Of a stretch of 64,000 bases of DNA, positions 8,917 through 26,353 are shown piece by piece; the first letter of the stretch is position 1; each line of letters opens with the position of its first letter. This DNA comes from an uncultured Bacteroidales bacterium (lineage in GTDB: Bacteria; Bacteroidota; Bacteroidia; Bacteroidales; JAEINX01), in NCBI GenBank assembly GCA_964462015.1, contig CAYWXI010000002.1, forward strand, positions 23,128 to 87,127, given 5' to 3'. The position numbers and the translations under genes are program-made. The notes below the pieces were generated by a model that did not search any database, had not been told where the DNA came from, and worked only from the letters and a program-made list of their open reading frames with translations.

Positions 8917-9056
8917 AATGAAAAGGATTTAATTAATTATTTAATTTGATAATCTTTTTTACTACTACGACAAAATATTACACAAATTTAAAAAAATGTC
9001 TTAAATAGCAATTTTTTTTACCTTAAATTTTTGTTAAATAATTTATAACGTTTAAT

Positions 9057-9092
9057 AAAAAAAGCCTGCTCAGCAAAAAACCGGGCAGGCTT
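9057..9092 (-). terminator. Intrinsic terminator after the FKBP gene
   Basis: aagcctgctc/gggcaggctt stem followed by a U-tract on the minus strand. Confidence 0.75.
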
Positions 9093-9113
9093 GTTTCCTA
9101 TTGTTATATTATA

Positions 9114-9701
9114 CTATTTGTCAATCGAAAGTAATTCAACTTCAAATACAAGGGTTGTATGAGGCGCAATTGCTTGTCCTGCCCCTTGTTCGCCATAAGC
9201 AAGTTCCGATGGAACAAAAAGTTTCCATTTCGAACCTGTCGGCATGAGCTGTAGTGCTTCAGTCCAGCCTTTTATAACACCGTTTACAGGGAAGCTTGCA
9301 GGCTGCCCTCTTTTTACCGAACTATCGAATACTGTTCCGTCAATTAAAGTTCCATGATAATGTGTGGTAACTTTATCGGTGAGTTTTGGTTTTTCACCGG
9401 TTCCATTATTAATAATTTCGTATTGTAAACCACTCGGTAAAGTTACAACACCTTCTCTTTTTGCATTTTCAGCGAGGAATTTTTTGCCTTCTTCCATTTT
9501 TTCTGCAGAATGTTTTGCCTGAAGTTCTTTAAAATAATCATTAACTAATTTCCCGATCTTTTCCTGAGGTATAGCAAGTTGATTTTCGTTTAAAACATCG
9601 TAAAGAGCTTTTGAGAAATCTTCAATACTATCAACTTTAAATCCTTGTTCTTTTAGGTTATAAGCAACGCTAACTCCAAGACTATAACTTAATTCATTCA
9701 T
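9114..9701 (-). CDS. fklB: FKBP-type peptidyl-prolyl isomerase (FklB/Mip-like)
   Basis: LPSGLQY, HYHGTLIDGTVFDSS, VIKGWTEAL, LAYGEQG. Confidence 0.92.
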   Translation of the reverse strand: MNELSYSLGVSVAYNLKEQGFKVDSIEDFSKALYDVLNENQLAIPQEKIGKLVNDYFKELQAKHSAEKMEEGKKFLAENAKREGVVTLPSGLQYEIINNGTGEKPKLTDKVTTHYHGTLIDGTVFDSSVKRGQPASFPVNGVIKGWTEALQLMPTGSKWKLFVPSELAYGEQGAGQAIAPHTTLVFEVELLSIDK

Positions 9702-9811
9702 ATAAAAATATATTTAGTTTTAAAAAACGGCAAATATAATGTAATATAATTTAAAAAGTTTAGAAAATCTTCTGAATTTAGAATTTGTTATAATTTTGCG
9801 AAAAATCTGAT

Positions 9812-11920
9812 ATGAAAAAGCAATTTAAGAATTTGTCTGTTAATCTTAAATTATTTTTGTTAATAGTTTTGGGGATAATAATTTCTGTTATTGTTATAAC
9901 CGTGTTTTCAATTCAAAAATCAAAACGGGAAATACAAATTTCTTTTCAAAATAATTTAACTCTTGAAGTACAAACTATTATAAAGATGTTTGAACGCGAA
10001 CGCGCTTTAAAGCTTGATAAAGTAAAAACCGATCTTAAAATTGCCAATAATATGTTTTATTCTGAAAAACTGAAGATTGGTGAAAGCACAAGAAATCTCA
10101 CCTTAATTAATCAAATCACAAAACAAAAGCATGATGCTTTACTTAATGAATGGTACCTGGGAAAAAAAGTAATTCCGGGTGACAATTCATTTGTTGATAA
10201 AACCCATGAATTATTTGGTGGAACAACAACAATTTTTCAACGCAGCGACAGTGGATATGTAAGAATTTCTACAAATGTTTTAAAATCTGATGGTACGAGA
10301 GCTATTGGAACTTTTATTCCGAATAGTTCGGAAGTTGTGCAAACAGTTAATAAAAACAAAACATATTTCGGAAGAGCATTTGTCGTAAATGATTGGTATA
10401 TTACAGCTTATGAACCAATAATCAGGAATGATTCTGTAATTGGGATGTTATATGTTGGTGGTAAAGAGAAAGACTTAAACGAACTTCACCGAATTTTAAA
10501 TGGCTTAAAAATAGGAAAAAGTGGTTTTGTTTTTGTCTTTGATGATAAGGAAAACATGATAGTTTCACCAAAATTATTCAACGATCAAAGTATAAATGAA
10601 GAATTAATTAATTTTATTATTGATAATAAAAGTGGTATAAAAGAGATTGCTATCCACCATAATGGCGAAAAATATCTCGTTGCTTTTGAATATTTTCCCG
10701 ATTTTAAATTATTTGTTGCTGCTGCAGTTGATCAAAAATTTGAAACTAAAAAACTATTTTCCGAAATAGTTATAAACTCAATAATAATAGGATTAATAAT
10801 AATCGTAATTTTTTCAATATTTGTTTACCTAATTACTACCGGAAACCTGAAAAAGTTTTTTCAACAGCTTGAAAAGTCGGAAACACAATTAACAACAACA
10901 CGATTGGCTTTAGAAAAATCGGAAAGGCAGTTTAAGACATTATTTAATAATAGTGGTGACGAAATTTTTGTTGTTGATTTTGATGGGAATATTGTTGAGG
11001 TTAATGATTCTGCCTGTCAAACCTTAGGCTACCCTCATGAAGAATTCATTAAGATGAATATCAGGGATATAAAAAGTGAGAACTATATTGGTGAAGTAGG
11101 AAAAAACATTGAATTGATTCGGAAATTTGGCCAGTATAGATATGAGTCCGAGCATGTTGCAAAAAACGGAAAACTAATTCCGGTAGAAATGAAAAGCAGA
11201 CTAATTGAATATAATGATGAAAAAGTTTTTTTAACTATTGCAAGAGATATTACCGAAAGAAAAGAAATTGAAGAAAAAATTCTGACAGCAATTATTGAGA
11301 CCGAAGAAAAGGAAAGAAAAAGATTTGCAGCCGACCTTCACGACGACCTTGCCCCCATTTTATCAACCGTAAAATTATATACCGATTTAATAAAAAAAGG
11401 TAATTATAAAAAAATTGATGAATCAGAGACCATAAAGAACATAGACGAACTTATTGATATGTCTATTTCTACAACTAAAGAAATCTCAAACAATATCCGT
11501 CCTAATATCTTACAGGATTTTGGCTTAGCGGCTGCAATCAATGAATTTTGCTCGTTTATAAACAATACAAAATCCATCAATATTAGTGTTAAAACTCAAA
11601 ACTATAAAATTGACAAACGGGGGATTGAAGAAACTATACTTTATCAAACTGTAAAAGAACTTATTAACAACACTTTAAAACATTCTCAGGCAAAAAATGT
11701 TGTAATTGAGCTTAAAAGCCATAATGACCAAATAATTTTATATTACCGCGACGATGGTATAGGTTTTAATGTAGAAGAAGCAATTAAAAATAAATCGGGA
11801 TTAGGACTTTATAATATTTTTAACAAAATAAAAACGATCAATGGTAATTGCGATCTTAATAGCGAAATCGACCAGGGAATGTTTTTATTAATTTCAATAA
11901 AATTAAAAAATTTGTACTGA
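9812..11920 (+). CDS. Membrane sensor histidine kinase (Cache 3/2-like, PAS, HisKA_3, HATPase)
   Basis: Two TM segments flanking RISTNV..GTRAIGT..YFGRAFVV..YITAYEPI; PAS (VNDSACQTLGY..RDITERK); ERKRFAADLHDD; DDGIGF, GLGL. Confidence 0.92.
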   Translation: MKKQFKNLSVNLKLFLLIVLGIIISVIVITVFSIQKSKREIQISFQNNLTLEVQTIIKMFERERALKLDKVKTDLKIANNMFYSEKLKIGESTRNLTLINQITKQKHDALLNEWYLGKKVIPGDNSFVDKTHELFGGTTTIFQRSDSGYVRISTNVLKSDGTRAIGTFIPNSSEVVQTVNKNKTYFGRAFVVNDWYITAYEPIIRNDSVIGMLYVGGKEKDLNELHRILNGLKIGKSGFVFVFDDKENMIVSPKLFNDQSINEELINFIIDNKSGIKEIAIHHNGEKYLVAFEYFPDFKLFVAAAVDQKFETKKLFSEIVINSIIIGLIIIVIFSIFVYLITTGNLKKFFQQLEKSETQLTTTRLALEKSERQFKTLFNNSGDEIFVVDFDGNIVEVNDSACQTLGYPHEEFIKMNIRDIKSENYIGEVGKNIELIRKFGQYRYESEHVAKNGKLIPVEMKSRLIEYNDEKVFLTIARDITERKEIEEKILTAIIETEEKERKRFAADLHDDLAPILSTVKLYTDLIKKGNYKKIDESETIKNIDELIDMSISTTKEISNNIRPNILQDFGLAAAINEFCSFINNTKSINISVKTQNYKIDKRGIEETILYQTVKELINNTLKHSQAKNVVIELKSHNDQIILYYRDDGIGFNVEEAIKNKSGLGLYNIFNKIKTINGNCDLNSEIDQGMFLLISIKLKNLY

Positions 11921-11983
11921 AAAAAAATTTAAATCACAACAACTTAGGCTTTAAATTGTTTATCTTTATAATAAAATCTGATT

Positions 11984-12622
11984 ATGGATATTGTAAAAAT
12001 TATAATTGCAGACGATCATATAATTTTCCGAAAAGGTTTGCGGACAATATTAAATGAAATCAATGACATTAAAGTAGTTGCAGAAGCATCAAATGGTCAC
12101 GAATTATTCGATATTTTAAAAAAACAAGAAGTTGATGTTATTTTAATGGACATTAATATGCCTGTAATGGATGGAGTTGAGGCAACAAAAAAAGTGCTTG
12201 CAAAATTTCCCGATATTAAAATAATTGCATTAACAATGCATGAAGAAATCGGATATTTCAATAAAATGATAGATGCCGGTGCCGATGGATTCCTCTTGAA
12301 AAAAACAACTAAAGATGAACTAGAACGCGCAATTCAAAGGGTGATGGACGATGACACTTACTTTTCTGAAGAATTTATCGGTAATATTAATAAATACACA
12401 AAACAAAAATCAAAAACTAGTGATATTAAATTGTCGGAGAGGGAAATTGAAGTTCTTGAACTTATCTGTAAAGGATATTCAAACACCGAAATCTCAAAAT
12501 TCCTCGGTTTGAGCAGCCGCACAATTGATGGTCATCGTAGCAGGCTTTTTGATAAAACAGGTGCTAAAAATGCCCCGAATCTTGTGATGTTCGCTATTAA
12601 AAATGGTTTGATAGAGACATAG
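11984..12622 (+). CDS. NarL/LuxR-family response regulator
   Basis: IADDH, LMDINMP, LSEREIEVL...HTH. Confidence 0.95.
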   Translation: MDIVKIIIADDHIIFRKGLRTILNEINDIKVVAEASNGHELFDILKKQEVDVILMDINMPVMDGVEATKKVLAKFPDIKIIALTMHEEIGYFNKMIDAGADGFLLKKTTKDELERAIQRVMDDDTYFSEEFIGNINKYTKQKSKTSDIKLSEREIEVLELICKGYSNTEISKFLGLSSRTIDGHRSRLFDKTGAKNAPNLVMFAIKNGLIET

Positions 12623-12784
12623 GAAGTCAGAAGAAAAATGTTCTGATGCAAATTCCAGCTAATAAAATCATAAAAAATCTGCCATAATCTGCATCTGAAA
12701 ATTATAGTCTTTTTCTTCATTTTTTCTGCCAATATCATATTTTTAAGAAATTATTAGCTCTGCTTTTTAATAACATACATCAAA

Positions 12785-13041
12785 ATACGTAAATTCCGTA
12801 TAAATTTCATAGTGGAAAACACCCTATGAAAAAAATATTTTAAAAAAATTAAAAATTTATTCGTATTTATTCTTTATTAAATCTACTGTTAATTAATTAA
12901 CAATAGAAAAAATCTATTTGTTTTTCAGAAAACATAAGGTAAGATTTTCAAAAAACATTTTCCTAATGATCTCTTTTACTGTTCTTAACAAACAATGATT
13001 AGGCGTTTTCACCTAATTTTGTACTTGCGTATTTCACTCTT
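12785..13041. promoter_or_regulatory. Imperfect palindromes upstream of the hydrogenase operon (candidate response-regulator boxes)
   Basis: atacg-N7-cgtat (12785-12801), ttcatag-N11-ctatgaa (12806-12830), attaggcg-tttt-cacctaat (12998-13017). Confidence 0.4.
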
Positions 13042-13062
13042 GTACAGACTTGGTTCTTGAAA

Positions 13063-13089
13063 TAATTTTGCTTGTGAAATAATTAACAA
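13063..13089 (+). promoter_or_regulatory. Bacteroidota -7 promoter element with adjacent Rex-like operator
   Basis: TAATTTTG (13063-13070), then TTGTGAA-ATAA-TTAACAA (13072-13089), one mismatch to the Rex consensus TTGTGAA-N4-TTCACAA. Confidence 0.65.
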
Positions 13090-13095
13090 TAGAAA

Positions 13096-13527
13096 GTGAA
13101 AACAAAAAAAGTAATAATAGTAGATAATAACAATTTCTTCAGAAAAGCATTAGGAGAAATATTATTGAGTATCGGAGGAGTGGAAATAGTTGTTGAAGCT
13201 TCTAACGGAAAAGAATTTCTTGATAATATAAAACTAAAGCCTGCCGATATTACTTTTATTAATATCAAATTACCACATATTGATGGTGTTGAAGCTACAA
13301 AAATTGCCCATCGAACTCATCCTGAAATGACTATTATTGGTTTTTCATCACTTGAAAATCAAAGATATGTCAGTCAGATGTTAGCTGCAGGCGCAAAAGG
13401 CTATCTATCAAAAAATCGTGATAATTATGATTTATTAAAGTTGATTATTGAAAACCCTGACGAAGGGCCGTTTTTATCAAAAGAAATAGAACAAAACATG
13501 AATCAAATTAATTTTCAAGTGATTTGA
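13096..13527 (+). CDS. Stand-alone NarL-type pseudo-receiver (phospho-Asp replaced by Asn)
   Basis: IVDNN; FINIKLP aligns to LMDINMP of 11984-12622; no output domain; GTG start. Confidence 0.85.
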   Translation: MKTKKVIIVDNNNFFRKALGEILLSIGGVEIVVEASNGKEFLDNIKLKPADITFINIKLPHIDGVEATKIAHRTHPEMTIIGFSSLENQRYVSQMLAAGAKGYLSKNRDNYDLLKLIIENPDEGPFLSKEIEQNMNQINFQVI

Positions 13528-13566
13528 TTAAAAAATTATTTATAAACAATCAAAAAAAATAAAGTC

Positions 13567-14067
13567 ATGAAAACAAAAAAAATTTTAATCGTTGACGATG
13601 ACGTAGATGTTATCAATGTTATTCAAACAATTTTAGAACACGAAGGCTACGAAGTTATTGCAGCAAACGACAAAAAAGAAGGCCTCGAAAAAGCAATAGA
13701 ATTGAAGCCTGACCTGGCTATCCTTGATGTTATGATGACAACACATTACGAAGGTTTTGAATTGGCAAAAGAATTAACAAGCAATCCTGCTTTTAATAAA
13801 ATGCCGGTTGTTATGCAAACATCAATCGAAGCCTTAACAACAACCAATCCAAGTGTTCAGGCAATGGCCAGAGAATTCAGGTTAGACCCTAAATACAAAG
13901 AATTACAAGTTATTTTAATCAAAGATGTTACAACCGGAAATGCTGGAATTGATTACTTGTCGGAAGAAGGAAAATCAATATTTATTCATATTGACGGTTT
14001 CTTCAGAAAACCTGTTGATTCAAGCAAGCTTTTACCTGAAATCAAAAGACTTTTAGGCAATAATTAA
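13567..14067 (+). CDS. Single-domain response regulator with internal insertion
   Basis: ILIVDDD, ILDVMM, QTS, FFRKP. Confidence 0.9.
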   Translation: MKTKKILIVDDDVDVINVIQTILEHEGYEVIAANDKKEGLEKAIELKPDLAILDVMMTTHYEGFELAKELTSNPAFNKMPVVMQTSIEALTTTNPSVQAMAREFRLDPKYKELQVILIKDVTTGNAGIDYLSEEGKSIFIHIDGFFRKPVDSSKLLPEIKRLLGNN

Positions 14068-14070
14068 ATT

Positions 14071-14142
14071 GAAACTGGAAATTCGAAATTGGAAATTAGA
14101 ATCGCAATTTAAGAGTAATCAAATTTCCAATTTCTAATTTTT
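14071..14142. repeat. GAAATT(A/G)-heptamer inverted repeat element
   Basis: gaaactg gaaattc gaaattg gaaatta ... aatttcc aatttct aatttt; same family as 20403-20452 and 31102-31160. Confidence 0.8.
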
Positions 14143-14199
14143 TAAAAATACAAGCCAGTTGCTAAAATATAAACACACAAAAAATAATATTGTAATTGA

Positions 14200-14667
14200 A
14201 TGAAAACAAGTTTTGAAGCAATTGTAGAAGAATATCCAAATGCCCAAAATGATAGTTTAATCCCGATTTTGCAAAAAATTCAGGATAATGAAGGGTATAT
14301 TTCAGAAGAATCAGTTGTCAGAGTTGGTGAATATTTAAAAATTCCAACAAGCAAAATTTTTGGTGTTGCTACTTTTTATAATCAGTTCAGGTTTGAACCT
14401 ACCGGAAAATATCATATTCAAGTTTGCAGAGGTACTGCATGCCATGTTTTAGGTTCGGCTACTGTTTTACAAGAATTAGAAAAATACATTAAAATCAAAG
14501 CAGGACAAACTTCAAGAGATGGTTTGTTTAGCATCGAAGTAGTTGCATGTATTGGTGCATGTGGTTTAGCTCCTGTTATTTGCATTAATGGCGAATTTTT
14601 TGCAAAAGTTACCGAAGAATCTATAAAAGAAATTATTGATAATTATAGAAATCAGGAGGAAAAGTAA
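14200..14667 (+). CDS. hydC: Bifurcating [FeFe]-hydrogenase NuoE-like subunit (HydC/HndA)
   Basis: CRGTAC...CIGAC 2Fe-2S motif; VATFYNQF. Confidence 0.9.
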   Translation: MKTSFEAIVEEYPNAQNDSLIPILQKIQDNEGYISEESVVRVGEYLKIPTSKIFGVATFYNQFRFEPTGKYHIQVCRGTACHVLGSATVLQELEKYIKIKAGQTSRDGLFSIEVVACIGACGLAPVICINGEFFAKVTEESIKEIIDNYRNQEEK

Positions 14668-16616
14668 TGAAGAGTCAAATTACAGATAATAAAAGTTTTC
14701 TTATTGATAATATTCTAAATAAGTTTTCAGTGAATACCTACGAAAGCGAAATAGCTGAGAAACTTAATGAGATTAAAAGAGAGAAAAACAATAAAACCAT
14801 AATTTATGTTGGTGCAGGAACTTGCGGCTTAGGTGCCGGAGCGGATAAAACAATTATAGCTGCAAAAAAATATATTGATGATCACAAAATTGACGCTGAT
14901 CTTATTGAGGTTGGATGTATAGGTCTATGTTCTTCCGAACCTTTACTTGATGTAAAAATTTCCGGTAAAAACAGAATATCTTTCGAGCATGTTACAGGTG
15001 ATAAAGTTAACAAAATCCTTGATGATGTTTTTAACGAAACTATTAATAATGATAATGTTTTAGGTCAATTTAAATCAGATTTAACTGAGAAATGGGAGAA
15101 TATTTCTTATCTTGATGATCATCCTTTTTTTGCTCCCCAAACACGTTTGGTTTTAAAAAACTGCGGAATTATTGATCCTGTAAACATCGAAGAATACATT
15201 GCTTATGGTGGATATAAAAGTTTTCTGGCAACTTTGAGCAAATACTCATCATCAGAAGTATGCGATTTAGTTGAAAAAAGCGGATTACGCGGCCGTGGTG
15301 GAGGTGGTTTCCCAACCGGAAGAAAATGGAAATTTGCAATGAGCACACCGGCAGATCAAAAATATTTGATTTGCAATGCTGATGAGGGCGACCCGGGAGC
15401 ATTTATGGACAGAGCCGTTATCGAAGGCGATCCGCATCGTCTGATCGAAGGAATGGCAATCTCAGCCTACGGAATCGGAGCATCAAAAGCTTATGTTTAT
15501 ATCCGTGCCGAATATCCTCTTGCAATAAAACGCTTAAGAGTTGCTTTGGAAGATGCAAAAAAATACGGATTATTAGGTAAAAATATATTCAATACGAATT
15601 TTGATTTTGATATTATTATAAAAATGGGAGCCGGTGCTTTTGTCTGCGGGGAAGAAACAGCTTTGATTCATTCAATTGAAGGTAAACGAGGTATGCCAAG
15701 GCCCAGGCCACCGTTTCCTGCCGTAAACGGATTATTCGGAAAACCAACAATTATTAATAATGTTGAAACTTTATCGAATATTGCGGGCATTTTTGAAAAA
15801 GGCCACGAATGGTTTAGCTCAATTGGAACCGACACAAGCAAGGGTACCAAAGTATTTGCGTTGTCGGGAAAAGTAGCATTGACCGGTTTAGTTGAAATTC
15901 CGATGGGAACAACAATTCGTGATATAGTTTTTAAAATCTCCGGTGGTGTTAAAAATAATAAAAAGTTCAAATCAGTTCAAATCGGAGGGCCATCGGGAGG
16001 TTGTATAACCGATGAAAACCTTGACATACAAATTGATTACGAATCATTGATTAAAGTGGGTGCGATGATGGGTTCAGGTGGGCTTGTTGTTATGGATGAA
16101 GATACATGCATGGTTGATGTTGCAAAATTCTTCATGGATTTCATTCAACGCGAAAGTTGTGGAAAATGTATCCCATGCCGCGAAGGAACAAAACGTATGC
16201 TCGAAATTTTGGAAAGCATAACTCATCGGCCAAATAATGAAAGTAATAACGAAGCACTTGTAAGGTTTAAAGGTATCCTTCAATTAGAAAAACTCGGTAA
16301 AGTTATCAAAGAAACCTCTTTATGTGGTTTAGGCCAAACTGCTCCAAATCCGGTTTTGAGTACGTTGAAATGGTTTCGTGATGAATACGAAGCTCATATT
16401 TTCGAAAGAAAATGCTCGGCAGGAGTTTGTACCGAATTAAGAACTTTTAAAATTGATGTTGATAAATGTACAGGATGTACGGCATGTATGCGAAAATGCC
16501 CAACCGCAGCAATTATTGGTACTAAAAAAGCACCTCATTTTATAGTTGAGGAAAAATGTATCGGTTGTGGTACTTGTGAAGAAATCTGCAAGTTTAATGC
16601 AATATCTGTTGTTTAA
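14667..16616 (+). CDS. hydB: Bifurcating [FeFe]-hydrogenase NuoF-like diaphorase subunit with N-terminal thioredoxin-like Fe-S domain and C-terminal 2x[4Fe-4S]
   Basis: GTCG..CIGLC; GLRGRGGGGFPTG; NADEGDPGAFMDR; CGEETAL; ESCGKCIPCREG; CTGCTACMRKCP / CIGCGTCEEIC. Confidence 0.93.
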   Translation: MKSQITDNKSFLIDNILNKFSVNTYESEIAEKLNEIKREKNNKTIIYVGAGTCGLGAGADKTIIAAKKYIDDHKIDADLIEVGCIGLCSSEPLLDVKISGKNRISFEHVTGDKVNKILDDVFNETINNDNVLGQFKSDLTEKWENISYLDDHPFFAPQTRLVLKNCGIIDPVNIEEYIAYGGYKSFLATLSKYSSSEVCDLVEKSGLRGRGGGGFPTGRKWKFAMSTPADQKYLICNADEGDPGAFMDRAVIEGDPHRLIEGMAISAYGIGASKAYVYIRAEYPLAIKRLRVALEDAKKYGLLGKNIFNTNFDFDIIIKMGAGAFVCGEETALIHSIEGKRGMPRPRPPFPAVNGLFGKPTIINNVETLSNIAGIFEKGHEWFSSIGTDTSKGTKVFALSGKVALTGLVEIPMGTTIRDIVFKISGGVKNNKKFKSVQIGGPSGGCITDENLDIQIDYESLIKVGAMMGSGGLVVMDEDTCMVDVAKFFMDFIQRESCGKCIPCREGTKRMLEILESITHRPNNESNNEALVRFKGILQLEKLGKVIKETSLCGLGQTAPNPVLSTLKWFRDEYEAHIFERKCSAGVCTELRTFKIDVDKCTGCTACMRKCPTAAIIGTKKAPHFIVEEKCIGCGTCEEICKFNAISVV

Positions 16617-16637
16617 CCTTTTATATATTTTAAAAAA

Positions 16638-18362: not shown

Positions 18363-18369
18363 TAAAATT

Positions 18370-18383
18370 TGTAAACGTTTACA
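18370..18383. promoter_or_regulatory. Perfect 14-bp palindrome, LacI-family-like operator
   Basis: TGTAAACGTTTACA between hydA and the sensory kinase. Confidence 0.45.
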
Positions 18384-18423
18384 GAACACTGAAATTAGAA
18401 ATTGGAAAACAGAAACTAGAAAA

Positions 18424-20472
18424 ATGGCAAGGACAAATAGAAATCAGCTTGTTTTTACTGAACCTGACAAATGTCGGGTTTGCTATACTTGTGTGAGAGA
18501 ATGTCCTGTGAAAGCCATTAAAATCATTAACGGTCAGGCTCAGGTAATTAGTGAGCGTTGCATTGGTTGTGGAAATTGTGTTACTGTTTGCAGCCAGGGT
18601 GCAAAGGTTTATTTAGATTCAAAAGCTGAAGTGTTTTCACTTCTTGATTCAGAGGAGAAAGTAATTGCATGTATCGCCCCTAGTTTTCCTGCCGAATTTA
18701 CAGAAATTAATGATCATTCTATTTTGGTTGGAATGTTAAAAAGGCTTGGATTCGATTATGTTGTTGAAGTGTCGTTTGGAGCAGATATTGTTGCAAAAGA
18801 ATATCGAAAAGAGCTGGAAGACGAAAATGCGAAACCTTGTATTTCATCCGACTGTCCGGCGATTGTATCATTTATTGAACATTATCACCCTGATTTAATT
18901 CCTTCTTTATCAAAAATTGCTTCACCGATGGTTGCTATTTCCCGGATAACAAAAAAGAAGTATGGTAATGATGTTAAGATAGTGTTTGTTGGCCCATGCA
19001 TTGCAAAAAAAGCTGAATCAGAAGAAATTGATGAGGTAATAACTTTCAAAGAGCTGAGGGAGATGTTTGTGTTGAGTGGCATTGACTCTGCGAAAGTTAC
19101 ACCTTGTGATTTCGATCCTCCAAAACCGGGAAAAGGAGCAATTTTTCCGGTAAGCAGAGGCATGCTGCAAACAATTAATAAAAGTGATGATATTTGTGAA
19201 GGTAATATTGTTGTTGCCGAAGGCCGAATTAATTTCCGCGATGCCATAAAAGAATTTGAAAATGGCCATATAAAAACTCAAAATCTCGAATTACTTTGTT
19301 GTGAAGGTTGCATTATGGGGCCGGGAATGTCAGTTGGTGGAAAAAGATATTCACGACGCACCAACATAAGTAATTATGTAAGAGAAAAAATCAGGAACCT
19401 TGATCAATCTCAATGGAAAAAGGATGTTGAAGAGTATTCAAAACTTGATATGAGCCGGTCATTTGAGGCTACTGACATACGTTTTAAACTTCCTTTACGC
19501 AAAGAAATTGATAAGGTTCTGGTTTCTATGGGAAAAATTACCCCAAAAGATCATTTGAATTGTGGAGCATGTGGTTATGATACCTGTGAGGAACACGCAA
19601 TTGCAATAGTAGAAGGTTTAGCCGAAAACGAAATGTGCCTGCCTTTTACCATTGAAAAACTTCATAAGTCAAATAATGATCTTAACCTCTCGAACCAAAA
19701 ACTTGCTTCCACCCGACAGGCATTAAAACAAAGCGAAAAGCTTGCCGGTATGGGCCAACTATCTGCCGGAATTGCTCACGAATTAAACAATCCTTTGGGA
19801 GTAATTACCATGTACAGCAATATTCTTATGGAAGAAACAAATGAAGATGATCCCTTAAGGAATGATCTTGAATTGATTGTTGAGCAAACAAACAGATGTA
19901 AAAACATTGTTGGCGGATTATTGAATTTTGCAAGAAAAAACCAGGTTAATTTATCTGAAACCAACATAATTAATTTCACAAAACAAAGTATCAAATCAAT
20001 TATTAAATCCAATTCAGTTAAAGTAATATTCAAATCAAACATTAGTGATCCGATTGCAATGATTGATACCGATCAAATGATGCAGGTTCTGACCAATTTA
20101 GAAAAAAATGCGATTGAAGCCATGCCTGATGGCGGTACTCTCAATATTGAATTAGATGGAAATAAAAACGAAATAGAATTTAAAATAAGTGATAGTGGTG
20201 TTGGTATTTCAAAAGAAAATATGGAGAAAATTTTTACTCCGTTTTTCACAACAAAAGAACTCGGAAAAGGAACAGGTTTAGGCCTTCCGTTAATTTATGG
20301 AATTATAAAAATGCACAAAGGACAAATTTCTGTTACCTCGAATGCAGACCCTAATAATGGCCAAACAGGAACATCTTTTAAAATTGTTATACCAAGAGAG
20401 AAGAAATTAGAAATTCAAGAGCAACCATCCCGAGTGCTCGGGACTAATTTCTTAAAGAAAACAAATAATTAA
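18424..20472 (+). CDS. Sensory (group C-like) [FeFe]-hydrogenase fused to a histidine kinase
   Basis: 2x[4Fe-4S]; variant H-cluster motifs SSDCP, GPCIAKKAE, ELLCCEGCIMGPG; FeS domain LNCGACGYDTC..MCLP; AHELNNPL; PFFTTK..GTGLGL. Confidence 0.9.
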   Translation: MARTNRNQLVFTEPDKCRVCYTCVRECPVKAIKIINGQAQVISERCIGCGNCVTVCSQGAKVYLDSKAEVFSLLDSEEKVIACIAPSFPAEFTEINDHSILVGMLKRLGFDYVVEVSFGADIVAKEYRKELEDENAKPCISSDCPAIVSFIEHYHPDLIPSLSKIASPMVAISRITKKKYGNDVKIVFVGPCIAKKAESEEIDEVITFKELREMFVLSGIDSAKVTPCDFDPPKPGKGAIFPVSRGMLQTINKSDDICEGNIVVAEGRINFRDAIKEFENGHIKTQNLELLCCEGCIMGPGMSVGGKRYSRRTNISNYVREKIRNLDQSQWKKDVEEYSKLDMSRSFEATDIRFKLPLRKEIDKVLVSMGKITPKDHLNCGACGYDTCEEHAIAIVEGLAENEMCLPFTIEKLHKSNNDLNLSNQKLASTRQALKQSEKLAGMGQLSAGIAHELNNPLGVITMYSNILMEETNEDDPLRNDLELIVEQTNRCKNIVGGLLNFARKNQVNLSETNIINFTKQSIKSIIKSNSVKVIFKSNISDPIAMIDTDQMMQVLTNLEKNAIEAMPDGGTLNIELDGNKNEIEFKISDSGVGISKENMEKIFTPFFTTKELGKGTGLGLPLIYGIIKMHKGQISVTSNADPNNGQTGTSFKIVIPREKKLEIQEQPSRVLGTNFLKKTNN

Positions 20473-20480
20473 GTACAAAT

Positions 20481-20885
20481 ATGTTACCAAAACATAAACA
20501 CATGAAAACAATATTAATAATCGACGATGACATTGATTATCTCGAACAAATGAAAATACAATTGACCTCTTTTGGTTTTGAGGCAGTAGTTGCCGAAAGT
20601 CAAAAAGAAGGCGAAGAAACATTAAATAAAATTAAACCTGATCTGGTAATTGTTGACATGATGATGGAAAACCAGGATAGTGGTTTTATTTTTTGTTATA
20701 AAATAAAAAAGAAATTTCCTGAGGTTCCCGTAATAATTGCTTCGGCGGTTACGGCTGAAACCGGGATGATTTTCGGACTGAACTCTGAAGAAGAACGCAA
20801 TTGGATAAAAGCCGACCTGTATCTTGAAAAAGGATTGCGACCTGACCAGCTTCAGCGGGAAATCAATAAATTATTAAAACTGTAA
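20481..20885 (+). CDS. Single-domain response regulator
   Basis: ILIIDDD, IVDMMM, ASA, YLEK; start may be the Met at 20502. Confidence 0.9.
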   Translation: MLPKHKHMKTILIIDDDIDYLEQMKIQLTSFGFEAVVAESQKEGEETLNKIKPDLVIVDMMMENQDSGFIFCYKIKKKFPEVPVIIASAVTAETGMIFGLNSEEERNWIKADLYLEKGLRPDQLQREINKLLKL

Positions 20886-21013
20886 TGCTTATCAAATAAA
20901 CTGATTTTAAAAATGAAAGAAAATCTAAATAAGCTTACAAAGGCATTTAAGAAATTAGTCGGTGGAGACCGGTTAATAAATTGTAAATTTTTTCATAAAT
21001 AGTTTTTTAGTTT

Positions 21014-21094
21014 GCGGGGAAAGGGTTGCTCAAAATGATGATTTTTTTTTGGTTGGTTAATATTTGTTTTTTCACCCTGACCCCGCTTTTTTTT
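21014..21094 (+). terminator. Long-loop hairpin with U-tract (possible intra-operon terminator)
   Basis: gcgggga-aagggt ... accct-ga-ccccgc-tttttttt. Confidence 0.55.
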
Positions 21095-21126
21095 GAATTG
21101 AAATCGAATTTTAAAATATAAATAAA

Positions 21127-22260
21127 ATGGAAAAGTTAAAAGTTTTAGTAGTTGATGATGAGCCGGGAATTCGTTCCGGAATCGAAAGGATATTAAAAAA
21201 TTACACTGTTGGGTATCCATTTATGGACGAAGATTTCCATTTTGATGTTATTGAAGCCGAAACAGGTGAAAAAGCAATTGAAATCATCGACGCCCAACAA
21301 GTCGATATTATTTTACTTGACAACAAATTACCCGGAATTCATGGAATTGAGGTTCTCGAATATATTAATAAAAAACAATACGACGCACAGGTAATGATGA
21401 TCACATCCTATGCTTCGCTCGACCTTGCCGTTAAAGCAACAAATAACGGAGCATACAATTTTGTGCCGAAACCTTTTACTCCACAGGAATTAAAAGCTGC
21501 TTTGGAAAGCATCACAAAGCATCTTTTCCTGAAAAGGATGACAAGAAAAATGAATGAAGAAGGCAAGCAGATCAGATTTCAGTTTTTATCTGTCTTATCG
21601 CACGAACTTAAATCACCTTTAAATGCCATCGAAGGTTATCTGCGCATTATGCACGACAAACAAGTTGGTAACAATATTGATGATTATCAAAAAATGATAG
21701 ATCGGTCGATGGAACGCATTAACGGCATGCGAGGACTTATTATGGACCTCCTCGATCTAACAAAATTAGAACCCGGAAAAAAACGTAATCTTAAAAATAT
21801 CGACATTTCTGAAATTGCCAAAATTAGCGTTAACACTATGGAACCTTTGGCCATTCAAAAAAACGTTAAATTATTTATTGATGTTGACCGGGATATTTAT
21901 TTCCCTGCTGATAGTACGGAAATAGAAATAATTTTTAATAACCTTATTTCGAATGCAGTAAAATACAACAAATACAATGGCGAAGTACATGTAAGTTTGA
22001 AAAATAATAATAATAATTGCATCAAAATAAAGGTTGAAGATACGGGTATTGGAATGTCAGAAGATGAAATTTCCAGGCTATTTCATGAATTTGTAAGAAT
22101 TAAAAATGTTAAAACAAAAAATATTACAGGAAGTGGGCTTGGATTATCAATAGTGAAAAAGCTTGTAGATGTTTATAATGGAAATGTTGAGGTTTCAAGT
22201 GTTCCCGACAAAGGAAGTACGTTTGAAATAGAATTACCTGTACAGAGAATGGGAGACTGA
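21127..22260 (+). CDS. Hybrid receiver-histidine kinase (REC-HisKA-HATPase), cytoplasmic
   Basis: VVDDE, LLDNKLP, PKPF; SHELKSPL; NAVKY, DTGIG, GSGLGL. Confidence 0.93.
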   Translation: MEKLKVLVVDDEPGIRSGIERILKNYTVGYPFMDEDFHFDVIEAETGEKAIEIIDAQQVDIILLDNKLPGIHGIEVLEYINKKQYDAQVMMITSYASLDLAVKATNNGAYNFVPKPFTPQELKAALESITKHLFLKRMTRKMNEEGKQIRFQFLSVLSHELKSPLNAIEGYLRIMHDKQVGNNIDDYQKMIDRSMERINGMRGLIMDLLDLTKLEPGKKRNLKNIDISEIAKISVNTMEPLAIQKNVKLFIDVDRDIYFPADSTEIEIIFNNLISNAVKYNKYNGEVHVSLKNNNNNCIKIKVEDTGIGMSEDEISRLFHEFVRIKNVKTKNITGSGLGLSIVKKLVDVYNGNVEVSSVPDKGSTFEIELPVQRMGD

Positions 22261-22304
22261 AGGGCTGAGAAAATGAGATATTCAAGCATTAAAACATAAA
22301 AAAA

Positions 22305-23732
22305 ATGAAATTTAAACCGGAAAAATATTCAATCGGGGATGAGTCAATGAAAACTTATATTGATTCCGGTGAAATCTGGGATTATATCAATAATGCCGTT
22401 CCGACAAAAGAAAGTGTTAAAAAGATCATTGAAAAATCATTAAACAAAAACCGACTGAATCTTCAGGAAGTTGCAACACTGGTAAATACAACCGATCCTG
22501 AACTTGTCGAGGAGATAAAAGCCGGAGCAAAAAAACTTAAAGAAAATGTTTATGGCAACCGTATAGTTTTATTCGCACCTTTATATGTTGGTAATTTATG
22601 CTTGAATGATTGTAAATATTGCGGGTTTAAGTCATCGAACAAAAATGCTGTCCGCAAAACCTTAAGCAAAAATGAATTAATTGAAAATGTTAAAGCTCTC
22701 GAAGAACACGGACAAAAAAGGCTGATCCTGGTTTATGGCGAGCATAAAAAATATTCTCCTGAGTACATTGCCGAAACTGTTCGTACGGTTTATGATGTAA
22801 AAACAGGAAATGGCGAAATTCGCAGAATCAATATAAATGCCGCCCCTCTCGACATCGAAGGTTATAAAATTGTTAAAGAGGCCGGAATTGGAACATACCA
22901 GGTTTTTCAGGAAACCTATCATCCCGAGGCATATAAAATTTATCATCAAAAAGGTATCAAAGCTGATTATTCATACCGCCTGACAGCTCTCGACAGGGCA
23001 CAGGAGGCCGGTATTGATGATGTTGGAATAGGAGTTTTGTTTGGATTATATGATTGGAGATTTGAAATTCTTTCACTTGTCCGACATACAAATCATTTGG
23101 AATCTTGCTATAATGTGGGTCCACACACCATTTCTTTCCCCCGTTTACAGGATGCATCCGAATATGATATTGATGAAAAACATAAAGTTTCAGACGAGGA
23201 TTTCACAAAATTAGTTGCCATTCTTCGTCTTGCTGTTCCTTATACGGGTTTAATTTTAACAGCTCGTGAATCGGAAAGTATTCGCAAAGAGGTTTTACAA
23301 TACGGTTGTTCACAAATTGATGCCGGTACCAAACTCGAAATCGGAGCTTATGCCGAAAATCCCGAAATTGATCAAAACCTGAATAAAGAACAATTTTTGA
23401 TCAACGATTCAAGAACTCTAAATGAAATTATCGACGAATTGGTTGATGACGGGTATCTTCCATCGTTTTGCACAGCCTGCTACCGATTGGGAAGAACCGG
23501 TGAACATTTTATGGAATTTTCGGTGCCCGGTTTCATTAAAAGATATTGCACTCCCAACGCAATTCTCACATTATCTGAGTATCTCATTGATTACGCAAAA
23601 CCCGAAACAGCAAACAAAGGCTGGAAAATCATCGATGAGAATATTAATAAAATCGATGACAAGAAAATAAAAACAGAAATTCTGAAAAGAATAGAAATGA
23701 TTAAAATGGGAAAACGTGATTTGTATTTTTAA
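22305..23732 (+). CDS. hydG: H-cluster radical SAM maturase HydG
   Basis: LFAPLY, CLNDCKYC, GPHTISFPR, C-terminal CTACYR...CTPN. Confidence 0.96.
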   Translation: MKFKPEKYSIGDESMKTYIDSGEIWDYINNAVPTKESVKKIIEKSLNKNRLNLQEVATLVNTTDPELVEEIKAGAKKLKENVYGNRIVLFAPLYVGNLCLNDCKYCGFKSSNKNAVRKTLSKNELIENVKALEEHGQKRLILVYGEHKKYSPEYIAETVRTVYDVKTGNGEIRRININAAPLDIEGYKIVKEAGIGTYQVFQETYHPEAYKIYHQKGIKADYSYRLTALDRAQEAGIDDVGIGVLFGLYDWRFEILSLVRHTNHLESCYNVGPHTISFPRLQDASEYDIDEKHKVSDEDFTKLVAILRLAVPYTGLILTARESESIRKEVLQYGCSQIDAGTKLEIGAYAENPEIDQNLNKEQFLINDSRTLNEIIDELVDDGYLPSFCTACYRLGRTGEHFMEFSVPGFIKRYCTPNAILTLSEYLIDYAKPETANKGWKIIDENINKIDDKKIKTEILKRIEMIKMGKRDLYF

Positions 23733-23780
23733 TTAATAATTAAGATGTTGCCATGTGATATGGTAGTTTTGTTTGTCAAT

Positions 23781-23823
23781 AAAAGCCATTCGGAATCGGA
23801 ATATGATTTCCGGTGGCTTTTTT
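23781..23823 (+). terminator. Intrinsic terminator after hydG
   Basis: aaaagcca...tggctttttt. Confidence 0.65.
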
Positions 23824-23857
23824 AAACTGTTAAACTAATTTACTAAAAAACACTACA

Positions 23858-25069
23858 ATGACTAAAGGAAAAGATTCAAAGCCACATATCGGAATTTTTG
23901 GAAAAAGAAACAGCGGGAAAAGTTCTTTCATAAATACAATAGTAGGACAGGATGTTGCAATTGTTTCCGAAAATGCAGGTACAACAACCGATCCGGTTAA
24001 AAAATCATTGGAAATTTTCGGTATTGGCCCGGTAATTATCATCGACACAGCAGGAATTGATGATGATGGCAAACTTGGAAAAATGCGTGTTGACAAAAGT
24101 CTGGAAGTTATAAAAACCGTTGATTGTGCTATTCTTATGATCACAACTAATTCATTCGATGTTTATGAAATCGGTTTGATCAAAAAATTCAATGATCTTG
24201 ATATTCCTTTTACAATAATTCACAACAAGGCCGATATTGAAAAAATCTCAAAAAATACCATAGAAAAAATTGGAAGCCACACCAATGCTCCCATTATTGA
24301 TTTTAGTGTAAAACATCCCGAAAATACCGATGAAATTGTAAATCAATTAAAGAACATTATTCCTGAAACTGCCTATAAATCTATTTCACTTCTCGGCGAT
24401 TTGCTTTCAAAAGATGATATCGTGCTTTTAATCACTCCTATCGATTCTGAAGCTCCGGAAGGAAGAATGATATTGCCGCAAGTTATGGCAATCAGAGATA
24501 TTCTTGATAACGACTGCGTTGCTATTGTTGTGAAAGAAACCGAAGTAAAACATTTTCTCGAGAAAACAAAGATAGTTCCAAAATTAGCTATTACCGACAG
24601 CCAGGCATTTGAGCTTGTAAAAGAACTGATTCCCGAAAATATTCCTTTAACAAGTTTCAGTATTGTATTTGCAAGAATGAAAGGGGATTTTGAGGAATAT
24701 ATTAAAGGTACCAAAACTATTCCTGATTTAAATAAGGGTGACAGGATTCTAATTCTTGAATCATGTTCACATAGGATTAGTTGTGATGATATTGGTAGAT
24801 ATAAAATCCCAAAATGGTTGATGGAATACACAGGTAAATCATTTGAATTTGATGTTGTTGCCGGTTTAGATAAACTCGATCGCAATATTAATGATTATGC
24901 ATTGCTTATTCAATGTGGCGGCTGTGTTGTTACCCGCAAACAACTTCACAACAGATTGAAACCTGCAATTGATGCAGGAATCCCGGTTTCAAACTACGGA
25001 ATGACAATTGCCTATATGAATGGGATTTTTGATCGCGCAATAATGCCTTTTAAAAAGAAAAACAAATGA
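23858..25069 (+). CDS. hydF: H-cluster maturation GTPase HydF
   Basis: GKRNSGKSS, GTTTDPV, DTAG, NKAD, ESCSH...QCGGC, NYG. Confidence 0.96.
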   Translation: MTKGKDSKPHIGIFGKRNSGKSSFINTIVGQDVAIVSENAGTTTDPVKKSLEIFGIGPVIIIDTAGIDDDGKLGKMRVDKSLEVIKTVDCAILMITTNSFDVYEIGLIKKFNDLDIPFTIIHNKADIEKISKNTIEKIGSHTNAPIIDFSVKHPENTDEIVNQLKNIIPETAYKSISLLGDLLSKDDIVLLITPIDSEAPEGRMILPQVMAIRDILDNDCVAIVVKETEVKHFLEKTKIVPKLAITDSQAFELVKELIPENIPLTSFSIVFARMKGDFEEYIKGTKTIPDLNKGDRILILESCSHRISCDDIGRYKIPKWLMEYTGKSFEFDVVAGLDKLDRNINDYALLIQCGGCVVTRKQLHNRLKPAIDAGIPVSNYGMTIAYMNGIFDRAIMPFKKKNK

Positions 25070-26154
25070 AAACACCTTTCCATAAAATATTATCTAATAA
25101 AAGACTAAATAAAGAGAATATTGTTAAACTTTTATCAGCAACTGATTCGATTGAAAGAGAAAACATCAGGCAAAAAGCTTACTCAATCAAACGCAAACAT
25201 CTTTCCAAAACGGTTTATTTAAGGGGATTAATTGAATACTCAAATATATGCTCACGCAATTGTTTATATTGTGGTGTCAGGGCCGGAAATATTGATATAA
25301 ATCGTTATCAATTGCCTGATAAGGAAGTTTTAGAAGCAGTTGATTATGCATGGAAAAACAAGTTTGCTTCAATAGTTATTCAATCCGGCGAACGTAACGA
25401 CAAGGAATTTATAGCCAAGATCGACAATCTTTTAAAAAAAATAAAACAAAACACAAACAACGAAATCGGGATAACATTATCATGTGGCGAGCAAAGTGAA
25501 GAGACTTACCGAAGATGGTTTGAAAGCGGTGCACATCGTTATTTATTAAGAATTGAAACTACGAATGAAGTTTTATTCAATAAAATTCATCCTGTTAATA
25601 CTGAAATAAATTTTTCAAAACGATTGAAATCACTTGAATTAATAAGGAAAAGCGGTTACCAAACCGGAACAGGAGTTATGATAGGACTGCCTTTTCAAAC
25701 AATTGATGACCTTGCCGAAGATTTGATGTTTTTTAAAAGCTTTGATATTGATATGGTTGGAATGGGGCCATATATCGAATGTGATAATACTCCCCTAAGC
25801 ATTTATAATAATCTTCTGCAACCTCTGAATGAAAGGTTTGAATTGAGTTTGCTAATGATTTCCGTATTAAGAATTTTGATGAAAGATATTAATATTGCCT
25901 CGTCAACCGCATTACAGGCCATTCATCCGATGGGCCGCGAAAAGGGATTACTTGCAGGTGCAAATATCATTATGCCAAACGTTACTCCCCTTAAATATCG
26001 GGCTGATTATCTCTTATATAAGGATAAACCCGGCATAAGCGAAAAATGCGATTCGGTTAAAAGCAGGCTCGAAAACAACATTAAATTATTTGACGAAAAC
26101 ATTGCTTACGGCCTTTGGGGGGATTCAAAGCATTTTAGTTGTAAAAAAAAATGA
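25066..26154 (+). CDS. hydE: H-cluster radical SAM maturase HydE
   Basis: LRGLIEYSNICSRNCLYC, RYLLRIET, GMGPY, AGANIIMPN, YLLY. Confidence 0.94.
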   Translation: MKTPFHKILSNKRLNKENIVKLLSATDSIERENIRQKAYSIKRKHLSKTVYLRGLIEYSNICSRNCLYCGVRAGNIDINRYQLPDKEVLEAVDYAWKNKFASIVIQSGERNDKEFIAKIDNLLKKIKQNTNNEIGITLSCGEQSEETYRRWFESGAHRYLLRIETTNEVLFNKIHPVNTEINFSKRLKSLELIRKSGYQTGTGVMIGLPFQTIDDLAEDLMFFKSFDIDMVGMGPYIECDNTPLSIYNNLLQPLNERFELSLLMISVLRILMKDINIASSTALQAIHPMGREKGLLAGANIIMPNVTPLKYRADYLLYKDKPGISEKCDSVKSRLENNIKLFDENIAYGLWGDSKHFSCKKK

Positions 26155-26156
26155 TA

Positions 26157-26220
26157 TGGATTTTAGGGCTTGATTTTGTGTTAGTCAGGCCTGGATTCAA
26201 AGTCAAGCCCTGACTATCCA
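26157..26220. repeat. Inverted repeat between convergent genes (terminator/REP-like)
   Basis: agggcttgattttg (26165-26178) / caaagtcaagccct (26198-26211). Confidence 0.6.
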
Positions 26221-26353
26221 AAAAATATTCAATTAAACTTTGGAATTTTAGCACATGAATATTATTAGGTAGGTTATCAAAGATTATTGTGTTTTTTAAG
26301 AACTCAACTGAGGCTTAAATCCTAATATGCAAGGTCATGTAATTCCTTGTTCC

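Follow-up and report, generated by a model that had tools for sequence, protein, structure and literature searches.

A hydrogenase–histidine kinase fusion and its receiver cassette beside the HydABC-type [FeFe] hydrogenase of an uncultured Bacteroidales bacterium

The fusion of a hydrogenase-like protein with a histidine kinase, and its position beside the HydABC-type [FeFe] hydrogenase, are already in print, where they are known from sequence alone: HydDB lists a class "[FeFe] C1, histidine kinase-linked (putative)" (PMC5037454), a Petrimonas genome is described as carrying a C1 gene near a bifurcating hydrogenase (PMC7768429), and the main text of a 2024 mSystems article places a kinase-bearing "BfuT" after bfuA in the sub-type V BfuABC clusters of Hydrogenedentota and Caldithrix abyssi, some Bacteroidota having two bfuT, of which the second copy is located upstream (PMC11406978). 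A locus of this kind is the subject of the present analysis; it lies in a stretch of 64,000 nucleotides (the window: contig CAYWXI010000002.1 of assembly GCA_964462015.1, positions 23,128 to 87,127 of the forward strand) from an uncultured Bacteroidales bacterium and, as in the BfuT and HydDB C1 clusters, a hydrogenase-like protein with a histidine-kinase part (g08, or HydS-HK) directly follows hydA of a hydCBA set. By its architecture g08 resembles HydDB C1; C1 and C3 are both possible.

The HydS proteins of Thermotoga maritima (TmHydS; group C, M2f) and Thermoanaerobacter mathranii (TamHydS; group D, M2e), compared in PMC8163306, which also defines the residue positions distinguishing sensory from catalytic enzymes and the Cx2Cx4Cx16C motif, share with g08 two N-terminal [4Fe-4S] motifs, an H-domain and Cx2Cx4Cx16C, as well as the loss of the proton-relay Cys and the replacement of both M353 and M497 (CpI numbering). 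In g08 there is no PAS domain, and the Fe-S site runs straight into the kinase; furthermore, its residues are mixed, Gly at M353 being that of TmHydS and Leu at M497 that of TamHydS (PMC8163306), whereas the Asp at C299 contrasts with the Ala of TmHydS (PMC6226526). The g08 family, as judged from these residues, is not simply a copy of either studied sensor. In Cupriavidus necator the [NiFe] regulatory hydrogenase HoxBC, the kinase HoxJ and the regulator HoxA constitute an H2 sensor that controls hydrogenase genes; there the metal centre is unrelated, the kinase is a separate polypeptide and the output is DNA-binding, whereas in g08 sensor and kinase form one protein. As to the remainder of the cluster, Caldithrix abyssi Cabys_3675-3679 resembles the window in having a Rex box ahead of hydCBA but, as far as described in PMC5317091, has rex within the locus, whereas the rex copies of the genome studied here lie elsewhere and its Rex-type boxes precede two receiver genes, not hydC directly. 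A receiver, a receiver-kinase, an in-cluster rex and the REC166/NarL variant defined below are not discussed in the main text of PMC11406978, in which the term "response regulator" does not occur, although its supplementary figures may show neighboring receiver genes. Search listings yielded no relevant literature on a relay from HydS to a receiver; neither the cassette formed by a receiver and a receiver-kinase, nor the linker that varies by whole heptads, nor the variant combining REC166, a pseudo-receiver and a NarL regulator was found in print.

The original prediction, made from the letters of the window, depicted the locus as a single complete circuit in which H2 perceived by the fusion would be signaled through stand-alone receivers and a hybrid kinase, be combined with a periplasmic ligand and with NADH/NAD+, and end on a NarL-type regulator. 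Its inventory and the synteny of its core have held, whereas the one wired circuit is not supported, the Cache–NarL pair not being syntenic within the genus. The account that we hold to be reasonably probable is instead that three parallel inputs (an H2 relay, Rex and the Cache–NarL pair) stand side by side and do not form one chain ending on NarL.

The open reading frame (ORF) listing of the window contains thirteen ORFs, all on the + strand and exactly where the prediction had located them. With assignments from Pfam and, as indicated, from other sources, these are:

9812–11920, + strand: g01, membrane sensor kinase with Cache_3-Cache_2, PAS, HisKA_3 and HATPase_c
11984–12622, + strand: g02, NarL/LuxR-type response regulator with Response_reg and a GerE helix-turn-helix (HTH)
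13096–13527, + strand: g03, NarL-type receiver without HTH, Response_reg only, predicted pseudo-receiver (Pfam; alignment)
13567–14067, + strand: g04 (REC166), single-domain receiver, Response_reg only (Pfam; alignment; AlphaFold2 (AF2); Foldseek)
14200–14667, + strand: g05, HydC, NuoE-like [2Fe-2S] subunit (Pfam; NCBIfam)
14667–16616, + strand: g06, HydB, NuoF-like flavin/NADH subunit with Fe-S domains (Pfam; NCBIfam)
16638–18362, + strand: g07, HydA, catalytic [FeFe] hydrogenase, Fe_hyd_lg_C and SSU (Pfam; NCBIfam; motifs)
18424–20472, + strand: g08 (HydS-HK), two Fer4, Fe_hyd_lg_C, FeS (PF04060), HisKA and HATPase_c
20481–20885, + strand: g09 (REC134), bare receiver, Response_reg only
21127–22260, + strand: g10 (REC-HK), Response_reg, HisKA and HATPase_c, no further sensor domain
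22305–23732, + strand: g11, HydG maturase, radical SAM/BATS (Pfam; NCBIfam TIGR03955, 505 bits against a cut-off of 312)
23858–25069, + strand: g12, HydF maturase, HydF domains (Pfam; NCBIfam TIGR03918 above cut-off)
25066–26154, + strand: g13, HydE maturase, radical SAM (Pfam; NCBIfam TIGR03956 above cut-off)

Both the ORF list and Pfam agree with the prediction that hydCBA and hydGFE are interleaved with three histidine kinases and five receiver domains, and Pfam confirms over the thirteen proteins that g02 alone among the receivers has a DNA-binding domain. The count of five receivers is likewise correct, but not all of them are phospho-competent, the acceptor Asp of g03 being replaced by Asn.

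HydA scores 813 bits on NCBIfam NF040763 (cut-off 765) and bears the canonical motifs TSCCPGW, MPC and MACPGGC (L1–L3), HydG, HydF and HydE all exceed their curated NCBIfam equivalog cut-offs, and HydA shares one cluster with a NuoF-like HydB and a NuoE-like HydC, which is the gene set of HydABC (group A3). By these signatures HydCBA is a trimeric NADH/ferredoxin-type [FeFe] hydrogenase and HydGFE are its maturases, bifurcation itself being predicted. Only two genes of the genome, HydA and g08, contain Fe_hyd_lg_C. In the HydA of several non-Bacteroidota clusters (L056, L057, L062, L064, L066, L068 and L081) the first motif reads TSCSPGW (TTCSPGW in L064) instead of the TSCCPGW of the window, one adjacent Cys being changed to Ser, and in three rex-type Bacteroidales loci (L018, L032 and L045) the corresponding stretch is S/T-S-D/S-C-P, another residue taking the place of the proton-relay Cys. 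Two [NiFe] large-subunit-like genes are present elsewhere in the genome, one on contig C1 and one on contig C71, and one of the two rex-like genes is located ~4 kb upstream of the former (G000:C1:26483-26623 and G000:C1:30747-32006; G000:C71:5938-7212).

The properties of the fusion were examined in an alignment of 68 rows, made up of the window protein and 67 ORFs whose coverage of g08 is 90% or more. The Fe_hyd_lg_C match of g08 amounts to 177 bits, and in all 68 rows the eight ferredoxin Cys, the H-cluster Cys C144, C192, C293 and C296, K195, E198, the four Cys of Cx2Cx4Cx16C and His452 are invariant. At the position of CpI M353 all rows have Gly, at that of M497 66 of 68 have Leu, and at that of the proton-relay residue C299 Asp (49 rows), Thr (9), Ser (4) and Asn (2) are found. 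The alignment supports the view that g08 possesses the full set of traits of putative sensory [FeFe] hydrogenases of the HydS type, i.e., an H-domain with the four H-cluster Cys, two N-terminal [4Fe-4S] motifs, Cx2Cx4Cx16C, a proton-relay Cys that is not conserved and the replacement of both Met; the PAS domain that in group C (M2f) follows the C-terminal cluster has no Pfam match in g08, where HisKA and HATPase_c are found instead. His452 follows the last Fe-S Cys at a distance of 47 residues in 65 of the 68 rows and of 40, i.e., one heptad less, in the remaining three, and Leu recurs with a 7-residue periodicity at positions 413, 420, 427 and 434 of g08. An AF2 model built from 58 rows (the window protein and 57 of 65 references, eight near-duplicates having been dropped) with a mean predicted local distance difference test (pLDDT) of 83.5 displays a single unbroken helix from 406 to 471 so that, given the fixed spacing, the Fe-S cluster site is predicted to sit at the foot of the signaling helix that carries phospho-His452. 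Thus, of the claim that the fusion is an H2 sensor, the sensory-hydrogenase anatomy and the synteny with hydCBA described below are borne out, while H2 sensing itself is an extrapolation from them.

That g08 instead perceives redox (reduced ferredoxin, electron pressure), or is a working subunit of the hydrogenase complex, is suggested by its three accessory clusters in addition to the H-cluster site, by the Asp at the C299 position, which allows proton transfer in CpI (PMC6226526), and by PMC11406978, where such proteins are named the T subunit of BfuABC ("BfuT") and H2 sensing is doubted for some group C1 members. The invariance in 68/68 rows of the four H-cluster Cys, K195 and E198, which argues for a bound H-cluster, the replacement of both diiron-framing Met as in the studied sensory enzymes (PMC8163306) and the very fusion of the hydrogenase domain to a kinase render this reading highly doubtful. 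Co-folding of HydA with residues 1–410 of g08 gave a score of 0.00 against a mark of 0.32, a result that bears neither way.

The conservation of the gene neighborhood was analyzed starting from a pattern search with g08, one genome per species, in which 115 of 182 candidate stretches were confirmed and 80 kept; the synteny set consists of the 74 loci (L015–L088) that include the hydrogenase part, those with the kinase part only (L089–L094) being left out, and the ORFs of each locus were assigned by best BLASTP match to the thirteen window proteins. In this set the gene immediately preceding the fusion is hydA in 63 of 73 evaluable loci, the complete hydC-B-A order precedes the fusion in 55 loci (plus 7 interrupted by a contig end), REC134 is directly downstream in 64 of 72, and the series fusion → REC134 → REC-HK is contiguous in 62 of 68 evaluable loci, REC-HK following the fusion without REC134 in 6 loci; hydG comes after REC-HK in 19. 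The titles of the loci having this cassette comprise Bacteroidales, Lentimicrobiaceae, Calditrichaceae, Thermoguttaceae, Planctomycetaceae, Lentisphaeria, Ignavibacteria, Aminicenantes, Myxococcales and others, three loci being Hydrogenedentota contigs and one a Caldithrix sp. contig. Exceptions are found in Hydrogenedentota (L061 and L063, without nearby hydCBA), in Spirochaetota (L073 and L074) and in L078 and L083; in addition, 3 or 4 genes separate hydA from the fusion in L024 and L025, and REC134 precedes the fusion in L071. The expected conservation of signaling genes beside hydABC therefore holds across phyla for the core made of the fusion, REC134 and REC-HK, for which the feared lack of synteny is not seen. 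In an order-wide sample, residues 280–470 of g08, a segment running from the last H-cluster motif through the Fe-S site and the linker to the H-box, are matched with E ≤ 1e-40 in 157 of 401 genomes, i.e., in 130 of 342 high-quality genomes and 97 of 236 genera, nearly all the matches lying in frames of ~660–690 residues; the fusion is common in the order.

A few loci depart from this scheme in other ways. In the distant L076, L078 and L083 (39–43% identity) the fusion is accompanied by additional bare receivers and by receiver-kinases of greater length (~500 residues). Hydrogenase genes are absent from its vicinity in L083; in L076 and L078 another hydCBA set, distinct from the first, is found downstream. 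The hyd or kinase genes are split into 2–3 ORFs in L031, L050, L055, L069, L082 and L084, as a result of an assembly frameshift or of pseudogene formation.

Two cluster architectures can be distinguished. In the rex-bearing type many loci have, upstream, a divergent ~620-residue HydS-like gene lacking the kinase, which adjoins hydC in 14 of 54 evaluable loci; in the REC166 type, to which the window belongs, there is no rex in the locus, hydGFE follows REC-HK, and the gene immediately preceding hydC is REC166 (20 of 54 evaluable loci). HydA is ~70% identical to that of the window in the REC166 type and ~55% identical in the rex-bearing type, and the two form separate clades. Since they do, the mutual exclusion of rex and REC166, which occur together only in L071, may reflect one historical event, possibly a single ancestral one, and no functional conclusion is drawn from it.

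As to the individual receivers, REC134, whose gene starts 9 bases past the stop codon of g08, retains D15, D16, D59, T/S88 and K117 in 65–66 of 66 sequences, and both the receiver and the kinase catalytic residues of REC-HK are invariant in 64 of 64. REC166, aligned as the window protein with 17 of 18 references, has an intact D/D/D, S and K set and a conserved three-stranded beta insertion at about residues 115–142; in its AF2 model (pLDDT 88) the receiver fold is extended by three additional strands inserted after helix 4 and before strand 5. The idea that REC166 hides a DNA-binding or other domain was rejected, Foldseek returning receivers only. On the other hand g03, which matches NarL-type receivers best (NCBIfam) and ends where the HTH would start, has Asn in place of the acceptor Asp and DN in place of the acidic pair DD; at the acceptor position its relatives have N (L015 and L016), E (L031 and L069) or D (L017). 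As judged from its alignment, g03 is a NarL-derived pseudo-receiver that is not phosphorylatable on Asp.

The conserved relay contains neither a DNA-binding output nor an Hpt domain. No Hpt domain was found among the Pfam hits of the thirteen proteins of the block, whose second His carrier is a full kinase (g10), so that a multi-step His-Asp-His-Asp phosphorelay is not recognizable. Moreover, no Response_reg is fused to the kinase among the best 120 of 7253 matches to residues 280–682 of g08 (proteins of 375–1194 residues). The absence of a DNA-binding domain from the fusion, REC134 and REC-HK of the window, whose genes stay together so regularly, can be taken to mean that there is no transcriptional output at all and that the relay ends on REC134 and REC166, which would act on proteins (HydABC, Rex or a kinase) as a direct H2 feedback; the strictly conserved insertion that REC166 carries on an ordinary receiver fold, and the rex gene found directly after REC-HK in 30 loci, are in keeping with such an ending. 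However, kinases often act on regulators encoded elsewhere, a receiver-kinase points to one or more additional phosphorylation steps, and the complementary occurrence of REC166 and in-cluster rex may go back to the single ancestral event considered above; an ending of this sort is unlikely. In its specific form, to which only a slim chance is given, H2 would be written onto REC134 and REC166, these would bind the hydrogenase, Rex or a kinase, and g03 would serve as a NarL decoy; if true, the output of REC134/REC166 would be the first post-translational or protein-level H2 feedback on an [FeFe] hydrogenase.

The second of the three parallel inputs would be Rex. The Rex consensus is TTGTGAANNNNTTCACAA, and a rex-hydCBA arrangement with a Rex box is described for Caldithrix abyssi Cabys_3675-3679 (PMC5317091). 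The spacer between g02 and g03 has two sites of this type:

12886–12903, strand not specified: Rex-type box 1, CTGTTAATTAATTAACAA, one mismatch to the widened pattern TTGTKAANNNNTTMACAA; the identical 18-mer is present in L016 and L085
13072–13089, strand not specified: Rex-type box 2, TTGTGAAATAATTAACAA, 6 bases ahead of the start codon of g03, one mismatch to TTGTGAANNNNTTCACAA

Both boxes are followed by the same bases (TTAACAATAGAAA) and, as seen by eye, belong to a ~16-base direct repeat, 186 bases apart (12886–12910 and 13078–13096). With up to two mismatches to the consensus the window contains 4 sites where 1.02 are expected, a count reached in 2 of 100 shuffles and weak when taken alone; box 2 is one of three sites with at most one mismatch in the 5.33 Mb genome. 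The other two (G000:C10:60728-60745 and G000:C17:39219-39236; L097 and L098) are located upstream of fermentation genes, namely a PTA_PTB phosphate acetyl/butyryl-transferase and a pair made of a glyoxalase-type epimerase and a carboxyltransferase, whereas a Rex-like site at 61485–61502 (one mismatch to the widened pattern) was not counted as regulatory, being placed inside the ORF 61381–62655 and probably due to chance. In the 74 loci taken together, the consensus with two mismatches allowed gives 29 sites; of these, 19, distributed over 13 loci, are located no more than 1.5 kb ahead of hydC. The commonest perfect palindrome upstream of hydC is TTGTTA-N6-TAACAA (12 loci); with the widened pattern TTGTKAANNNNTTMACAA and at most one mismatch, 25 sites are found upstream of hydC, in 22 of 59 loci, vs. 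6 elsewhere. Of the 74 loci, 36 include a rex gene (PF06971 + PF02629), which immediately follows REC-HK in 30 and immediately precedes hydC in 5, and two rex-like genes are present in the genome studied here, both outside the block. An input from Rex is likely on these grounds; the TGTGA-N6-TCACA core is also that of a CRP-type motif, so that another regulator may be involved. The Rex box and NADH input of the original prediction are made plausible by the boxes, the two rex-like genes and the enrichment upstream of hydC, and weakened by two of the observations gathered further below, which concern a degenerate box 2 and the genome-wide count.

The ending on NarL is not supported. The Cache domain of g01 is, reading the translation by eye, extracytoplasmic and situated between two hydrophobic stretches; the nearest NCBIfam model of g01 is MctS, far under its cut-off, and those of g02 are UvrY/GacA and MctR, also under cut-off. 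Only 63 bases separate g01 from g02, and the two constitute a pair of the NarX/NarL type, a HisKA_3 kinase adjoining a REC-GerE regulator with an intact receiver D/D/D and K. Kinases of the HisKA_3 class ordinarily have an adjoining NarL-type regulator as their cognate partner. The genome of L015 (G405) encodes counterparts of both, a 702-residue protein with 85% identity to g01 and a regulator with 93% identity to g02, which are again together, and again beside a 195-residue ORF on the − strand, but on a contig other than that of the hyd cluster; a DNA search in both same-genus genomes showed that 11984–12621 matches one contig and 12710–13527 the hyd contig. Since g01-g02 and hyd are on separate contigs in both congeners, the adjacency of the pair to hyd is not conserved within the genus. 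A rearrangement breakpoint is recognizable just past the stop codon of g02 (12622–12710 of the window vs. G002:C85/C128 and G405:C25/C20).

A tie between NarL and the hydrogenase is nevertheless likely in the lineage, orthologous NarL genes adjoining the hyd clusters of other genera. NarL-like genes are found upstream in 8 of 20 REC166-type loci, in L069 the whole order of the window from the Cache kinase to hydE is repeated, with frameshifted ORFs, and in four of four genomes (G401–G404) the g02 orthologue adjoining the hyd cluster is the best genome-wide match (49–77% identity, other paralogues being ≤45% identical). In L044, CNNM- and GldD-type genes lie upstream of NarL, and the gene preceding NarL in L072 and L017 has the opposite orientation; the hyd-adjacent NarL has no adjoining HisKA_3 kinase in L017, L044, L072 and L077. 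These occurrences favor the single circuit, i.e., the reading in which H2 is relayed from g08 through the bare receivers and REC-HK to g02 and combined there with the Cache ligand and Rex, as does the UvrY/GacA family being the nearest model of g02. Members of this family are fed by HisKA-type kinases. Nevertheless, g01 provides a HisKA_3 kinase immediately upstream of g02, both congeners keep the pair intact on a contig separate from that of hyd, most loci with the core cassette are without any NarL-like gene, there is no Hpt domain, and g03 is not predicted to be phosphorylatable on Asp. Furthermore, in genomes whose hyd-adjacent NarL lacks a neighboring kinase (G401–G403) the best g01 matches are PAS-HisKA_3 kinases of ~435 residues with no NarL-like ORF in the 4-kb loci (3/3 examined, L100–L102); a kinase of this sort would offer such a NarL the most economical partner. 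The single circuit is for these reasons improbable. NarL is probably tied functionally to the hyd operon of this lineage, as predicted, but its feeding by the H2 relay is not supported, and we infer that it takes its signal from a HisKA_3 kinase whose sensor part varies.

With three parallel inputs, the locus could work as follows. H2 at the H-cluster of g08 would alter the redox state of the C-terminal [4Fe-4S] site, and this change, passed down the long helix, would switch autophosphorylation at His452; the phosphate would most likely be transferred to REC134 and/or to the receiver of REC-HK, whose phosphorylation would switch the second kinase, the final target of the relay presumably lying outside the conserved cassette. 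Independently, Rex, encoded elsewhere in the genome, would bind the two boxes of the g02–g03 spacer, tying expression to NADH/NAD+, and g01 would phosphorylate g02 in response to an outside ligand. The latter two are considered a separate pair because of their HisKA_3 and GerE types and because they move together to another contig in the congeners. At the level of a guess, REC166 may be a further member of the relay and g03 a non-phosphorylatable partner or decoy of NarL.

Several considerations weigh against this account. The Asp found at the C299 position is shared with neither of the two studied sensory enzymes and supports turnover in CpI, the C299D variant of which keeps 30–80% of the H2-release activity (PMC6226526), and by analogy g08 may be more than a slow sensor. 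The positions of the dimerization and histidine phosphotransfer (DHp) domain that usually set specificity are nearly invariant in the g08 family (G459 in 65/68, M463 in 57/68 and Y464 in 62/68 rows), so that kinase–receiver covariation cannot decide the partners. As to Rex, box 2 is degenerate in L015, where no site with at most one mismatch was found, the sites in the whole genome barely exceed those of a reversed-pattern control (3 vs. 2, and 4 vs. 2 in a second scan), and the ~50-fold enrichment upstream of hydC (0.29 vs. 0.0055 sites per kb) is inflated, TTGTKAANNNNTTMACAA having been derived in part from the same upstream regions. The relay could also feed the four hyd-adjacent NarL without a neighboring kinase and, more generally, the functions proposed for the members of the locus rest on sequence and model.

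The block is probably subdivided into transcription units; the hairpins that bear on this, and the two genes that flank the block, are:

14077–14142, + strand: stem-loop followed by a U run, terminator- or attenuator-like, between g04 and hydC (−17 kcal/mol, z −2.8)
21014–21094, + strand: long-range GC stem (GCGGGG...CCCCGC) followed by U8, between g09 and g10 (−24 kcal/mol, z −2.2)
26157–26220, strand not specified: strong hairpin at the end of the block, between convergent genes, after hydE (−33.3 kcal/mol, z −4.1; 0 of 200 shuffles as stable)
9114–9701, − strand: left neighbor, FKBP-type isomerase ORF (ORF list, Pfam)
26354–27190, − strand: right neighbor, PAD_porph family ORF (ORF list, Pfam)

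The hairpins were folded separately, those with long loops having been missed by the terminator scan. A strong hairpin, of unrelated sequence, occupies the g04–hydC spacer in 9 of 20 REC166-type loci, and the g09–g10 spacer exceeds 100 bases in 17 of 62 rows and is ≤30 bases in 37 of 62. Since the boxes are located in the g02–g03 spacer and the homology to the hyd contig of the congeners starts at 12710, the promoter for g03 and the following genes is probably found there; a sigma-70 scan, whose model does not cover Bacteroidota promoters, gave 62 sites vs. 77.5 in shuffles, i.e., fewer than by chance, and an Rfam scan of 9000–27000 returned only a chance-level microRNA match. The nearest contigs are titled uncultured Bacteroidales and the datasets containing DNA of the stretch are marine or seawater metagenomes; no RNA dataset was listed as containing 12700–22300.

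The locus is a well-preserved member of a widespread and already catalogued sensor family, in a lineage-specific variant, and represents an experimental handle and not a new kind of system. The value of the window is that it supplies one more intact member, in which REC166, the pseudo-receiver and NarL replace the in-cluster rex of other lineages. The putative sensory [FeFe] hydrogenases studied so far end in a PAS domain or in nothing and have no known partner to which they would transfer their signal. In the present family, where sensor and kinase are one polypeptide, H2 sensing could be read out directly as autophosphorylation and phosphotransfer, with the candidate partners encoded next to the fusion. 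The commonness of the fusion in anaerobic Bacteroidales bears on the H2 output of fermenters in sediments, digesters and marine particles.

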